Source: Escherichia phage SaltyDalty. From it: a stretch of 36,900 nucleotides of DNA. The position numbers were made by a program, and so were the translations under genes. This document shows, one piece after another, positions 8,564 to 12,044 of the stretch. The stretch is taken from the sequence record PP925825.1, one strand, 5' to 3'. Within the stretch, counting starts at the first letter, position 1, and the number at the start of each line of letters is the position of its first letter. The notes beneath the pieces are model-generated. The model did no database searches. It saw nothing but the letters and a program-made list of their open reading frames with translations, and had not been told where the DNA came from.

Positions 8564-8916
8564 TACTTACTCCAGTGAGACGCAGGATCGAGCGGGTAGC
8601 CGTTGGCATCACAGCCTATGACTGTGCCGCTCTTCTCCATTCTCTGCTTAGTTGAGTCATGGTGCGCTTTGCACAGTGCCTGCCAGTTGGCTTTATTCCA
8701 GAACTGGTACTGAGCTTTGGCGATTGCCTCAGCATTGCCTGACTTAAGCGCATCTTTGAGTTTGTGGGGCTCTATATGGTCAACCACCGTTGCTGGGGTT
8801 ATGCGCCCCTGCTGCTCGCACATCACACATAGTGGGTGCTGCTGCAGGAAACGCAGGCGGGCCTTATCCCATCGGCTGCCATATACGCGGGGCTCTTTGT
8901 TCATGCCAGCCTCCAT
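8563..8916 (-). CDS. HNH endonuclease, packaging-associated
   Basis: Cys pairs CVMC and ALCKAHH with VDHIEPH motif; next to the terminase genes as in HK97-like phages. Confidence 0.85.
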   Translation of the reverse strand: MEAGMNKEPRVYGSRWDKARLRFLQQHPLCVMCEQQGRITPATVVDHIEPHKLKDALKSGNAEAIAKAQYQFWNKANWQALCKAHHDSTKQRMEKSGTVIGCDANGYPLDPASHWSK

Positions 8917-9488
8917 GCGCGGCGGCGTTCTGTCCTCGGCTCGTTGTCAGGGTGACGTTCAACCGTCTGGAGGTCAGCGTGATCCACCAGCGAGTAACAC
9001 GGATAAATCACCCGGCCACCGAAGGCCTCACCGACGGCGTAATCAGCTGCAAGCGTTTTGTTCCATGTGCTGAGCATGCGCGCCAAACTTCCCCGAGGAG
9101 GGCTATAACATACGCCGTGAATCAGCTTGCTTATTACGATGTGGTCACCACAGACGCGATCCGAATCCACCAGCATTCCGGCAATCTCTTTCTGATACTG
9201 CGGCGGTCGGCCGGTACCGAGATAAAAGCTCAGCATGTCGTCAGGGAAGCGAGCCAACCAGTCAGTTACCTTTTCGGTGAATCCATGTACCGGCAGTGCG
9301 TCGTCTTCCAACACTACCACCCTGCATGTTTGCTCTGCTGCCCACTCAAGCGCGCGTCGGTGATTCCAGTTCGCGCCGTGGTTACCGTCATCAATCAGCA
9401 AATGTGCGCCTATAGCCGAGGCCAACGCCTCAGCCTGCTGCCGTCTGGCGTGATGACCGACCACCACAAACTTTATGTTTTCAGCCAC
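8901..9488 (-). CDS. Putative GT-A fold glycosyltransferase, GT25-like
   Basis: Motifs NHRRALEWAA and VVVLEDD resemble the SHxxxW and ILEDD signatures of family-25 LOS glycosyltransferases; probable GTG start at 9488 with GGAG 9 nt upstream; no TM segments. Confidence 0.5.
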   Translation of the reverse strand: MAENIKFVVVGHHARRQQAEALASAIGAHLLIDDGNHGANWNHRRALEWAAEQTCRVVVLEDDALPVHGFTEKVTDWLARFPDDMLSFYLGTGRPPQYQKEIAGMLVDSDRVCGDHIVISKLIHGVCYSPPRGSLARMLSTWNKTLAADYAVGEAFGGRVIYPCYSLVDHADLQTVERHPDNEPRTERRRAWRLA

Positions 9489-9500
9489 CAGCAAATCTCC

Positions 9501-9526
9501 AATAAAAAAGCCGCACGATGGCGGCT
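9501..9526 (-). terminator. Intrinsic terminator-like hairpin upstream of the GT25-like gene
   Basis: Stem AGCCGC/GCGGCT with 6-nt loop followed on the minus strand by TTTTTATT. Confidence 0.45.
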
Positions 9527-9655
9527 ACTGTCTGAATATCAGGGTGTTACTTCGCTTTAACCCTGGTTAAGGTAAGCACTCAGCCCGTCAGTGGTGGGAC
9601 ACTGGCGCACACATGTGCAGAGTGATGGCTGATTACCTCTGACGAAGGAAAGGAA

Positions 9656-9895
9656 ATGAGTGGATATAGCGTTTCAGAACAGTTTGAACGGATTGATGAC
9701 GTTTTACGCAAAAATTACGCGCTGACAGAACTGCTTGCTCAGACATTCAGCGCATTTGTTGTTGGCTCAAACAACAAAGAAGTTATTGCAAACTTTATTA
9801 AATCAACTTCTGTTAGTGACCCGTCGATGGTTGAGGCTCACACTCATGCAAAAGAAGCTTTACTGAAGATTCTTGACTCCGTAAAAACAAACTAA
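9656..9895 (+). CDS. Hypothetical protein; opposite-strand moron in the late operon
   Basis: 79-aa ORF with strong RBS GAAGGAAAGGAA before ATG, own downstream terminator, AT-rich codon usage, antisense to the surrounding late genes. Confidence 0.55.
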   Translation: MSGYSVSEQFERIDDVLRKNYALTELLAQTFSAFVVGSNNKEVIANFIKSTSVSDPSMVEAHTHAKEALLKILDSVKTN

Positions 9896-9958
9896 TTTTT
9901 CAATACTTGCAGAAGATATAAATATCTTACCTGTAGGCACTCTGAAAAATTCTTGGCT

Positions 9959-9986
9959 GCGGCAACTAGATTTGTTGCCGCTTTTA
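9959..9986 (+). terminator. Intrinsic terminator of the plus-strand moron
   Basis: 8-bp stem GCGGCAAC/GTTGCCGC (9959-9966, 9974-9981) with 7-nt loop followed by TTTTA. Confidence 0.6.
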
Positions 9987-10023
9987 CTCTTAACTAGTGT
10001 TTTGCTTACCATAATTTCCTCTC

Positions 10024-11481
10024 TTACTTATGTTTGAACCATGCGTACTCTTTACCGATTCCTTCTGACTTAAACACTGTATGGATGCGCGGTCCGGTGA
10101 CAATGCGATCGCCAAAAGACTTAGCAACAATGCCAAAAGCGATCATATCCCCCACCGCGGCGCCAGCCTGTTCTTTCTTCCAGAAACGATAACTCTCGAT
10201 CCGGTAGTAAAGACGGATGATGCCGTGGGCAAACGCCATTACATCAGCGCGGGTACCACCCAGCAGACCAGCGTTTAGCATCACATCGTTGCGGTGCGCT
10301 TCGATGAACTCCTGATAGATACGCTCAGGATGATTCTGCTTTGCCCAGGTGTCGGCGTAGGTCTTCGGTTCAGAACCGACGTAAACAGTACCGGGCTGCA
10401 TTTCTTCCCACGGTGCGCGGAGCATTTCGACATCTGTACCATCGGTACACCAGACGAACCGGTATTCAGGATGATCACGCAGGTGCTGCCAGATATGCAG
10501 CCATCGCCGGAAGTAGACATTCATCTTCACGTCAGGAACGCGATACAGCTCAACGTCTGCCGGTGCCGTCTGCAGTTCATCCACCAGCGCGATACGACCA
10601 CAATTCCGAAGCGAGGAAGCCCAACGGGTCAGCATGTCAGGTGCGGCGGACATTTTCGTACCGCGCTGCGGATCTGACTGGCTGGTCAGCAGAGTAGTGA
10701 TAACCACGTCGCGCTGCCGCCGATAATCCACGGAACCGGTAAACCCGGCATCGCGCCGTTCGTTATGGATTTTAACGTTACGTTCTACCAGCGCCTGTCG
10801 ATCTGGTTTCGGTACCGAACGCTCTACGGCTTCATGCTCATCAAGGGAATGAATCAGCTTTTCTGAACCGAGGACATCAGCGTAAGCCCACGTAGTCAGT
10901 CCTGCGTTATGGATGCGCAAGGCGAGGTCGCTGTGCTCATACATGCCCCGGCCATAAACCGGATCGAATCCGCCTACCTTCTCGATGGCGCTGCGGTGGT
11001 AATAAAGCATCACGCCGCGCTGCCCGGTGTACGCCACATGCTGATCGTCACGGTAAAGCACCGAAAGGTCATTCAGCTTGTTCGTGCCAGCAAGATCGAG
11101 AAACTGGTAAGCCAGGTGTGGCTCGGGTGATTCGATGTAAGGCAGGTGCCAGTTATCAGCAATCGGCCAGGCATCATCATCCCACAGAAAAAGATGCTCG
11201 CACCCGGCATCCATCAAGGCTGACAGACTGGTGTTCTTCGAAGCAACAATGCCGAGTGATGTTTCATGGCGAAGCAGCTGCACGCCGTGGGGAACTACCG
11301 CTGCAGGTTTTGAACCATCATCGACAACCACCACCAGCGCGCCGGCGGGAAGATGCTTCATGTGCTGTTCGAGTGCTCGTTTTAAAACGTCTGCACGCTG
11401 ATGCGTCGAAATGGCAATGCCGATCCGTGATGAAACGACGCTGGCGGGAGCGTATGGGACACCATCAATAGTGACCTGCAT
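10024..11481 (-). CDS. Two-domain glycosyltransferase: N-terminal GT2 (GT-A) domain plus unassigned C-terminal domain
   Basis: N-terminal motifs GIAISTHQR, VVVVDDGS, WDDDAW and GGFDP match family-2 glycosyltransferases; C-terminal about 230 aa unassigned; no TM segments. Confidence 0.75.
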   Translation of the reverse strand: MQVTIDGVPYAPASVVSSRIGIAISTHQRADVLKRALEQHMKHLPAGALVVVVDDGSKPAAVVPHGVQLLRHETSLGIVASKNTSLSALMDAGCEHLFLWDDDAWPIADNWHLPYIESPEPHLAYQFLDLAGTNKLNDLSVLYRDDQHVAYTGQRGVMLYYHRSAIEKVGGFDPVYGRGMYEHSDLALRIHNAGLTTWAYADVLGSEKLIHSLDEHEAVERSVPKPDRQALVERNVKIHNERRDAGFTGSVDYRRQRDVVITTLLTSQSDPQRGTKMSAAPDMLTRWASSLRNCGRIALVDELQTAPADVELYRVPDVKMNVYFRRWLHIWQHLRDHPEYRFVWCTDGTDVEMLRAPWEEMQPGTVYVGSEPKTYADTWAKQNHPERIYQEFIEAHRNDVMLNAGLLGGTRADVMAFAHGIIRLYYRIESYRFWKKEQAGAAVGDMIAFGIVAKSFGDRIVTGPRIHTVFKSEGIGKEYAWFKHK

Positions 11482-11492
11482 AAAACCTCCCG

Positions 11493-12044
11493 TCAGAATC
11501 TACGCTTCAAGGAATTCCAGATCTTGCCGCCTGGCTGCATTGCTTGTTGCACAGTTTCGTCCACAACCTTTTTAATGGCCTGCTGTAAGGCTGTCTCTGG
11601 CGCTTTTCCTTTTTCGTCAGCATTAATCTTCACGTTATAACTCGTAGACAATACGCCATCGCCGATCAGCGCCTTGTGGATGTATGCCTGTCCGGATTTA
11701 TCGACAAACCAGCCCCAGCTAATGCCTTCTATTGGGCAACAGCAACGGATATCTCCCCCCGGCTTATCTACAGGTGAGCCGATATAACCACCGGTAGGTA
11801 CACCAAAGCGCGTATTTACCATGTGCTTAATAGCAAACTCCTGCCCTTCAGCAGTCAGGAAGGTGAAATAATTTTCCTTTTGATACTCCGTCGCGGTATG
11901 GCGTGTTTCAGCGAATCCCAGCTCCCGAAGCTCAGCAGCACCAGATTTAGCTGGCAGGTCACCAGACTGAAGCGCGCCACGGAAAAACAGCGCATAAAGA
12001 ACATCCGTCGCAGCGCCGGACAACGTAATGATTTTCTGACCCAT
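11493..12044 (-). CDS. Hypothetical protein (CCC motif)
   Basis: 183-aa ORF immediately upstream of the GT2 gene; unusual IRCCCPIEG motif. Confidence 0.55.
   Translation of the reverse strand: MGQKIITLSGAATDVLYALFFRGALQSGDLPAKSGAAELRELGFAETRHTATEYQKENYFTFLTAEGQEFAIKHMVNTRFGVPTGGYIGSPVDKPGGDIRCCCPIEGISWGWFVDKSGQAYIHKALIGDGVLSTSYNVKINADEKGKAPETALQQAIKKVVDETVQQAMQPGGKIWNSLKRRF

Follow-up and report, generated by a model that had tools for sequence, protein, structure and literature searches.

Glycosylation of phage virions was reportedly first shown in 2023, in mycobacteriophages only, and has been thought to be rare elsewhere. Freeman et al. (Cell Host Microbe, 2023) are said to have found that capsid and tail-tube subunits carry O-linked glycans at their C-termini, with little evidence for glycosylation outside the actinobacteriophages. 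The mycobacteriophage glycans reportedly shield the virions from antibodies. Here we compare with these systems a pair of glycosyltransferase genes, coding for proteins of 197 and 485 amino acids (aa), in Escherichia phage SaltyDalty. The window, which is the whole stretch of DNA that was analyzed, comprises 36,900 nucleotides (nt) of sequence record PP925825.1, and its gene content and gene order are those of a lambdoid, HK97-like (Hendrixvirinae-type) temperate phage. A first-pass annotation, made from the DNA letters alone, had described the two genes together with a gene for a 183-aa protein as a glycosyltransferase island. The coordinates, lengths, and motifs that it gave for the three open reading frames (ORFs), and their minus-strand orientation, were all correct. 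The evidence from the sequence suggests, with a probability that we put at about 65%, that the 197-aa and 485-aa genes are a late-expressed phage cassette for the O-glycosylation of virion proteins.

According to a 2025 paper (PMC12363180), glycosylated proteins occur in Che8, Corndog, and Myrna, and the two glycosyltransferases that are essential for glycosylating the capsid are Che8 gp110 and Corndog gp38. That mycobacteriophage enzymes of this kind act on capsid and tail-tube proteins is repeated in further papers. The 197-aa protein of SaltyDalty (8901-9494, minus strand; motifs NHRRALEWAA and VVVLEDD) is homologous to these enzymes. In BLASTP comparisons it was 33% identical to Che8 gp110 over 192 aa (E value of 8e-23) and 32% identical to Corndog gp38 (E, 4e-15), and it also matched Sparky gp89 (E, 3e-22). 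It matches phrog_854 ('glucosyltransferase') with an E value of 9e-72 and shares this PHROG with its gp110/gp38 relatives from mycobacteriophages. A tblastn search with the 197-aa protein matched 722 phage records, Myrna and cluster O relatives of Corndog included; by host genus or name, 662 were from Mycobacterium, 25 from Gordonia, 10 from Escherichia, 7 from Klebsiella, 6 from Serratia, and 4 from Cronobacter. Translation of the gene probably begins at a GTG codon at 9488, which has GGAG 8 nt upstream, and the product would then have 195 aa.

Sixteen residues of the 197-aa protein are invariant in the family alignment (R17, D35, G40, D65, A66, F72, P84, Y91, G93, V128, D151, Y164, S168, D171, H172, and D174), and four more are nearly so (E63, D64, N44, and H45). 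The AlphaFold2 model (predicted local distance difference test [pLDDT] score, 90.8) has a minimal GT-A fold. The top Foldseek matches of the model were mimivirus R655, POMGnT1, ppGalNAc-T2, and STIV A197 (E, 2e-7 to 7e-5; template-modeling score, approximately 0.6), so that two protein O-glycosyltransferases, ppGalNAc-T2 and POMGnT1, are among the nearest solved structures. Like the 197-aa enzyme, these four proteins have a GT-A fold, an acidic motif of the DXD type, and His/Asp residues downstream of it. However, they are only 10 to 13% identical to it, and the 197-aa enzyme differs in having no lectin or stem domains and in its proposed acceptor, which is a free C-terminal Gly-Ser rather than an internal Ser/Thr. 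We propose that the 197-aa enzyme is an initiating protein O-glycosyltransferase. Its earlier description as GT25-like was not borne out: no Pfam family matched at an E value of 0.1 or below, no NCBIfam model matched, and the GT25 enzyme COLGALT1 was only at rank 47 of the fold search (E, 3.9e-4).

The 485-aa protein (10024-11481, minus strand; motifs VVVVDDGS, WDDDAW, and GGFDP) is covered from end to end by phrog_1579 ('glycosyltransferase'; E, 6e-250). A library-wide HMMER search with the protein found 1,416 cluster representatives, of which 248 had E values below 1e-30, mostly with lengths of approximately 450 to 500 aa. Conservation was evaluated in an alignment of 95 cluster representatives, and the AlphaFold2 model (pLDDT, 95.4) was built on the same alignment. 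We are confident from the model that the protein comprises two GT-A glycosyltransferase domains in tandem. The N-terminal, GT2-like domain (residues 18 to 245 by the limits of the model; 10747-11430, minus strand) matches phrog_2456 over residues 18 to 243 (E, 1e-55). It has a GT-A fold according to AlphaFold2 and Foldseek and a DXD-type acidic motif (D54-D55, D101-D103); D54-D55, D101-D102-D103, and E182-H183 are nearly invariant. The first-pass annotation had called the N-terminal domain a 'clear' GT2 domain, whereas the Pfam GT2 family PF00535 matched residues 22 to 109 only weakly (19.3 bits compared with a gathering score of 23.3; E, 1.2e-3). A few close homologs have a precomputed PF00535 match. 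In NCBIfam, the only matches were weak N-terminal ones to MftF and EpsD, far under the cutoffs.

The C-terminal half, previously left unassigned, is predicted to be a second GT-A domain (residues 255 to 485; 10027-10719, minus strand) from the AlphaFold2 model and the whole-protein fold search. Residues 257 to 454 of the model have a Rossmann-like beta/alpha pattern, and D270, Q272, R273, R326, D347, D350, N403, G405, D445, H484, and K485 are nearly invariant. The fold search was made with the whole-chain model, and the best whole-chain matches were PmHS2 of Pasteurella (8viw), the E. coli K4 chondroitin polymerase K4CP (2z86), and human COLGALT1 (9evj), with E values of 4e-12 to 1e-8. The C-terminal domain was assigned as a second glycosyltransferase domain because these matches are enzymes with two GT-A domains per chain. 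They nevertheless differ from the 485-aa protein, to which they are 10 to 12% identical, in the relative orientation of the domains (root-mean-square deviation, 12 to 25 Å), and they are polysaccharide polymerases or collagen enzymes, whereas there is no sign of polymerization for the 485-aa protein. We propose that the 485-aa protein is a glycan-extending enzyme. The fold searches gave GT-A enzymes for both models and, together with phrog_1579 and phrog_854, confirmed that the two larger proteins of the supposed island are glycosyltransferases. Sequence searches of the Protein Data Bank (PDB) with all three proteins found nothing meaningful; matches to proteasome and antibody chains (E > 0.04) were due to chance.

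The 485-aa protein also has its relatives mainly in mycobacteriophages. A tblastn search of 50,697 phage records matched 605, of which 568 were from Mycobacterium phages. Full-length matches numbered 382, with 40 to 46% identity (Sparky gp88 is an example), and came mostly from cluster F records, so that full-length orthologs are shared with hundreds of cluster F phages and with Sparky. The arrangement of the genes is similar as well. In Che8 the glycosyltransferase genes gp108 to gp110 are followed by gp111, the HNH gene gp112, the cos site at the genome end, and the terminase genes. The order in the window resembles this: the 485-aa gene, the 197-aa gene, an HNH gene, a gene for a 66-aa protein, TerS, and TerL. 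In Sparky, gp88 and gp89 (the ortholog of the 485-aa protein and the small glycosyltransferase) precede the HNH gene gp95, and a metagenomic locus with a distant, 36% identical homolog has the order HNH, glycosyltransferase, TerS, TerL. The Corndog glycosyltransferase genes lie between the portal and capsid genes. Thus, the window shares with the cassettes of Che8 (gp108 to gp110), Corndog (gp35 to gp38), and Myrna an enzyme of the gp110/gp38 family, at least one additional glycosyltransferase gene adjoining that of the small enzyme (here that for the 485-aa protein, directly upstream), and a site within the late or structural genes, which in Che8 is likewise near HNH and terminase genes. The differences are that the host here is a Gram-negative enterobacterium and the phage a lambdoid, HK97-type temperate one; that the partner is a single two-domain protein of 485 aa, whereas the Che8 partners are gp108 and gp109; that the Corndog cassette includes an O-methyltransferase, which the window cassette does not; and that glycans have been demonstrated in mycobacteriophages, whereas the enterobacterial system is known here from its genes.

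In total, 80 HK97-like loci were analyzed together with HK97 itself. Among the 59 HK97-like loci that cover the HNH gene, 52 carry both glycosyltransferases. The 485-aa and 197-aa genes overlap in HK542, Fostie, and ECP1, and relatives of the enzymes were found in prophages of Enterobacter, Citrobacter, Klebsiella, Cronobacter, Salmonella, and E. coli. The type phage HK97 (NC_002167; 4028-5545) lacks both genes, and its gp5 and gp6 end in ..SSGS and ..EEGS; because 52 of 59 related loci carry the enzymes, HK97 looks like an exception in its own group. Two jumbo phages of approximately 300 kilobases, KpLz-2_45 and KpYy_2_45 (Klebsiella/Serratia; MN871446.1 and MN871451.1), encode homologs of both enzymes (55% and 43% identity), so that the cassette also occurs in enterobacterial phages of a very different type. 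The literature searched contained no description of such a system in enterobacterial phages, and the published accounts of mEp390 and HK542 do not mention the glycosyltransferase genes. To this extent the first-pass annotation was right not to recognize a described arrangement; however, a homologous system has been described in mycobacteriophages since 2023, and the SaltyDalty system is best supported, on the sequence comparisons, as its enterobacterial counterpart.

The first-pass annotation saw no obvious substrate for the enzymes. However, three virion proteins of the window carry at their C-terminus the Gly-Ser that is also found on the glycosylated Che8 proteins. The six reading frames of the window contain 203 ORFs of 50 aa or more, and exactly three of these end in Gly-Ser, the genes for the major capsid protein, the head-tail adaptor Ad1, and the tail tube. 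Of these, the capsid protein (HK97 gp5 type, 385 aa; 3078-4235; phrog_10, E, 7e-87) ends in ..GTFSSGS, with the Gly-Ser codons at 3081-3086. The Ad1 adaptor (HK97 gp6 type, 108 aa; 2717-3043; phrog_40) ends in ..EPEEGS (codons at 2720-2725), and the major tail (tube) protein, in its short form of 147 aa (1086-1529; phrog_158, E, 3e-59), ends in ..SIESGS (codons at 1089-1094); all three genes are on the minus strand. Both the capsid and the tail tube have Gly-Ser ends in Che8 and Sparky too, and in seven other lineages with the glycosyltransferases this end is found again on capsid or tail-tube proteins that are unrelated. Examples are the Che8 capsid gp6 (..NKTGS) and tail tube gp11 (..YSDGS), the Corndog capsid (..PLVGS), the Sparky capsid (..PGGGS) and tail tube (..FGGGS), the tail tubes of Che9c (..GDGS) and Xula (..EDGS), the capsid of the Gordonia phage Fryberger (..PYAGS), and the capsid of a metagenomic lineage with 57% G+C content (..TPSGS). 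A locus with a lambda-like head module has the end both on a protease-capsid fusion (..EQGS) and on a lambda D-like decoration protein (..ESGS), where it sits on an extension beyond the family profile. In the background, 18 of 5,272 unrelated ORFs (0.34%) end in Gly-Ser, and several of the 18 are portals or alternative tail tubes. None of the capsid, tail, and decoration proteins of the glycosyltransferase-less phages lambda (E, V, and D), L5, and Bxb1 has such an end.

Within the HK97-like loci, Gly-Ser was kept after varied preceding contexts, 10 for the capsid, 17 for the adaptor (octapeptides), and 17 for the short tail tube. The capsid Gly-Ser was retained in all of these loci except L137, which ends in FSAD, and the fragmentary L163. 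In related loci, every short variant of the tail tube has the Gly-Ser end, which the long HK97-type form with its extra C-terminal domain lacks. These patterns lead us to propose that the capsid and short tail-tube proteins are acceptors of glycosylation, and the Ad1 adaptor may possibly be another.

The position of the genes is that expected of late genes. The gene for the Q antiterminator (14952-15767; phrog_127, E, 3e-100) marks the start of the late operon, where scans found a promoter-like site at 14910-14881, followed downstream by terminator-like hairpins at 14840-14786, all on the minus strand. Equivalent PR' and qut sites are annotated in the HK542 record. The same strand then encodes the lysis proteins, namely, holins (13617-14304), endolysin (13097-13639), and spanins (12680-13100), followed by two small ORFs (12454-12651 and 12166-12360), the 183-aa protein (11493-12044), the 485-aa and 197-aa enzymes, an HNH endonuclease of the HK97 gp74 type (8563-8916; Pfam HNH and phrog_2323), the 66-aa protein (8363-8563), TerS (7728-8213), TerL (6207-7721), the portal (4933-6210), the protease (4238-4927), the capsid protein, connector proteins (1589-3043), and the tail tube. 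The glycosyltransferase genes thus lie between the lysis genes and the HNH/terminase genes. The 485-aa gene starts 11 nt past the stop of the 183-aa gene, with a GGAGG ribosome-binding site in the gap, and the end of the 197-aa gene overlaps the HNH gene by 16 nt. The only other minus-strand promoter-like site between 6000 and 15500 was one weak match at 10103-10076, inside the 485-aa gene, and the total of promoter-like sites was below the expectation from shuffled sequence. Because of this tight packing, and because no credible promoter of their own was found, the glycosyltransferase genes are read as part of the Q-dependent late operon, in agreement with the cotranscription with late genes that had been suggested in the first-pass annotation.

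These results suggest the following mechanism. The Q-dependent operon would express the cassette late, together with the virion proteins. The 197-aa enzyme, with its E63-D64-D65 motif and D171-H172-x-D174, would be the counterpart of Che8 gp110 and Corndog gp38 and would move the first sugar from a host nucleotide-sugar to a serine at or next to the free C-terminus of virion subunits with a Gly-Ser end; in the window, this would apply to the major capsid and short tail-tube proteins and possibly to the Ad1 adaptor. The 485-aa enzyme, with two independent GT-A active sites, would add further sugars, and hundreds of subunits of the capsid and tail tube would bear short glycans when the virion leaves the cell. 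The basis for this proposal is homology, modeled folds, conserved residues of catalytic type, synteny, the late position, and the recurring C-terminal Gly-Ser, from which we infer the residue that accepts the glycan, the order in which the enzymes act, the sugars, and the biological benefit. In gut phages the benefit could be shielding from antibodies or, equally, protection from proteases or altered interactions with mucus or particles. A broader possibility, to which we give slightly less than even odds, is that a C-terminal Gly-Ser with a free carboxyl group is a portable acceptor tag of a cytoplasmic O-glycosylation common to phages of Actinobacteria and Enterobacteria. Most enteric HK97-type phages, including mEp390, HK542, and ECP1, which grow on K-12, would then be decorated with glycans, and the HK97 capsid would be a ready acceptor in a type phage without the enzymes.

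Several observations weigh against O-glycosylation of the virion. HK97 keeps both of its Gly-Ser ends without having the enzymes, so that Gly-Ser and the glycosyltransferases do not strictly covary inside the HK97 group, and Gly-Ser is also kept in loci in which the glycosyltransferase status is unreadable and lost only in L137, which has no glycosyltransferases. The Ad1 adaptor is largely buried at the portal, which makes it an odd glycan acceptor, and its Gly-Ser is invariant (loci L091 to L170) in spite of this expected burial. The end also occurs on a few portals in related loci (L100, ..NNGS; L165, ..ESGS). A simple surface glycan shield fails to explain Gly-Ser on the adaptor and portals. 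In some phages that carry the glycosyltransferases, one of the two proteins ends in ..AS or ..DS, and the motif may therefore be looser or have another role. The control set without glycosyltransferases was small (three phages, seven proteins). Furthermore, a GT-A fold gives nothing firm on the acceptor. BLASTP comparisons of the 485-aa protein with Che8 gp108 and gp109 showed no significant similarity, and the extending role of this protein is putative. The whole case for glycans on enterobacterial phages is one that we infer from sequence.

Alternatively, the substrate of the enzymes might be a glycan of the host envelope, such as the lipopolysaccharide (LPS) core, the O unit, the enterobacterial common antigen, or a capsule precursor, which they would modify on the cytoplasmic side of the membrane, for lysogenic conversion or as a late block of adsorption to debris. 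GT2-type and GT-A enzymes commonly work on lipid-linked glycans, both families are filed by PHROGs under 'moron, auxiliary metabolic gene and host takeover', the weak NCBIfam matches are to EpsD and MftF, and the interval between the lysis and terminase genes is a usual site of accessory cargo in lambdoid phages. TarP of a Staphylococcus aureus prophage, a soluble GT-A (GT2) enzyme that modifies wall teichoic acid in lysogens, is similar in being a soluble GT-A enzyme carried by temperate phages; no sequence relation to it was detected in the PDB sequence search. The first-pass annotation had treated the absence of transmembrane segments as an argument against envelope modification. The absence itself was confirmed, with maximum 19-residue Kyte-Doolittle values of 1.27, 0.83, and 1.23 for the three proteins, but it does not exclude such a role, since most LPS-core and O-unit glycosyltransferases are soluble or peripheral. 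What does make modification of the envelope unlikely is that Mycobacterium and Gordonia phages encode full-length homologs with 31 to 46% identity and that the envelopes of these two genera have no acceptor in common with those of Enterobacteriaceae. Therefore, the host envelope cannot be the shared substrate, and the factor common to such different hosts would be the phage's own proteins. In addition, E. coli K-12, the host of mEp390, HK542, and ECP1, has no O antigen; the neighbors of the glycosyltransferase genes include neither a flippase nor a membrane partner of the GtrA or GtrC kind; and expression in the lysogen is not expected because the genes are inside the Q-dependent operon and no promoter of their own was found. 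Of the two options left side by side in the first-pass annotation, virion-protein glycosylation and late envelope modification, the former is favored by the homology to Che8 gp110 and Corndog gp38, since these closest characterized relatives glycosylate virion proteins according to the 2025 paper (PMC12363180).

The Gtr (GtrA/GtrB/GtrC) modules of P22-like and Shigella phages are likewise phage encoded and include a GT2-type enzyme. A Gtr module consists of membrane proteins, namely, a GtrA flippase, a GtrB with a transmembrane anchor, and a polytopic GtrC transferase, and it is expressed in the lysogen. Such a module for O-antigen conversion was rejected for the window, in which the enzymes have no transmembrane segments, a flippase and a GtrC partner are missing, and the site is in the late operon. 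A preprint on seroconversion by Hf4s concerns a classical Gtr cluster and has no bearing on the enzymes of the window.

Another cytoplasmic target during late infection, for example a host protein, a defense signal, or an antibiotic-like compound, with the Gly-Ser ends of the virion proteins being unrelated, is quite unlikely. GT-A acceptors are very diverse, and Gly-Ser in HK97, which has no glycosyltransferases, and on the buried adaptor means that the motif might have another reason. However, such a target would leave unexplained the convergence on Gly-Ser, at a background of 0.34%, by unrelated proteins in eight glycosyltransferase-carrying lineages; no PADLOC or antidefense family matched; and according to PMC12363180 the capsid is not glycosylated unless the relatives gp110 and gp38 are present. 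Glycosylation of the phage DNA against restriction would explain the neighborhood of the HNH and terminase genes, with packaging genes adjoining the glycosyltransferase genes, and phage DNA glucosyltransferases are well known from T4. The T4 enzymes have a GT-B fold, whereas both enzymes of the window are GT-A. No genes for hydroxymethyl-pyrimidine or hypermodified-base synthesis, or for other base modification, were found among the window ORFs scanned, as had been stated in the first-pass annotation for modified-nucleotide synthesis, and the HNH neighbor is an HK97 gp74-type packaging factor that also occurs in phages without the glycosyltransferases. The homologs, moreover, act on virion proteins (PMC12363180). 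DNA as the substrate is thus very improbable.

The 183-aa protein, which had been counted as a member of the island, was rejected as a third component of the system because it varies independently, occurs in phages without the glycosyltransferases, and is related to the C-termini of J-type fibers. It has mosaic PHROG matches and is a short member of a family related to the C-terminal part of J (DUF1983). In this family the N-terminal 85 aa and a ..QPGG.IW.. tail are constant and the middle is variable; the CCC motif, which is present in the SaltyDalty protein, is not conserved. Longer relatives (217 to 299 aa) carry PF09327 (DUF1983, the C-terminal part of J-type fibers), and source records call them 'phage tail tip fiber protein' or 'Fur-regulated protein'. 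The N-terminal part is found in mEp213, mEp043, and mEp237, which have no glycosyltransferases, and the family is also present in phi80-derived DNA of E. coli DH10B. It is an oddity that a small soluble protein with a tail-fiber tip segment is encoded between the lysis and packaging genes and made at lysis.

A low-GC stretch of 529 base pairs (bp) separates the two glycosyltransferase genes (9495-10023) and was judged to be outside the glycosylation system. It contains a hairpin on the minus strand (9526-9509), an ORF of 79 aa on the plus strand (9656-9895), and thus in reverse to the glycosyltransferase genes, and a terminator on the plus strand (9959-9981). The 79-aa ORF matched no family in Pfam, PHROG, NCBIfam, or PADLOC. 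Among the related loci only three (L094, L113, and L117) have the 529 bp, and relatives have overlapping glycosyltransferase genes; the stretch is a moron-like insertion. Its first approximately 150 nt, including the hairpin, recur at other sites of accessory genes, for example upstream of J in HK97 (14995-15131), and in mEp390 this junction between the glycosyltransferase genes is occupied by an HNH gene.

Further accessory genes were observed elsewhere in the window. An AT-rich ORF of 116 aa (60-410, minus strand) has a signal-peptide-like N-terminus, MKKLVLFVLFFGFSCVSNA, and no PHROG match; it sits between the tail-chaperone and tape-measure genes, which is the position of the HK97 gp15 moron. 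A moron for a 224-aa protein (29133-29807, minus strand; phrog_425, 'membrane associated protein') lies between the genes for a J-type central fiber (30285-33461) and a side tail fiber (27954-29123). Genes for DinI-like (26699-27028, plus strand) and UmuD-like (27357-27689, minus strand) proteins beside the integrase gene (25022-26407) are SOS-related cargo at the prophage end.

E. coli K-12, phages that are already available, and the capsid protein that is best understood make the proposed glycosylation of virions testable. If the cassette does glycosylate virions, the pairing of a minimal Gly-Ser acceptor with two soluble enzymes would be an attractive tool for glycoprotein production in the cytoplasm of E. 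coli. Furthermore, if the cassette is active, glycan-coated virions would be common in the gut, which would bear on the interactions of phages with antibodies and mucus and on phage therapy.

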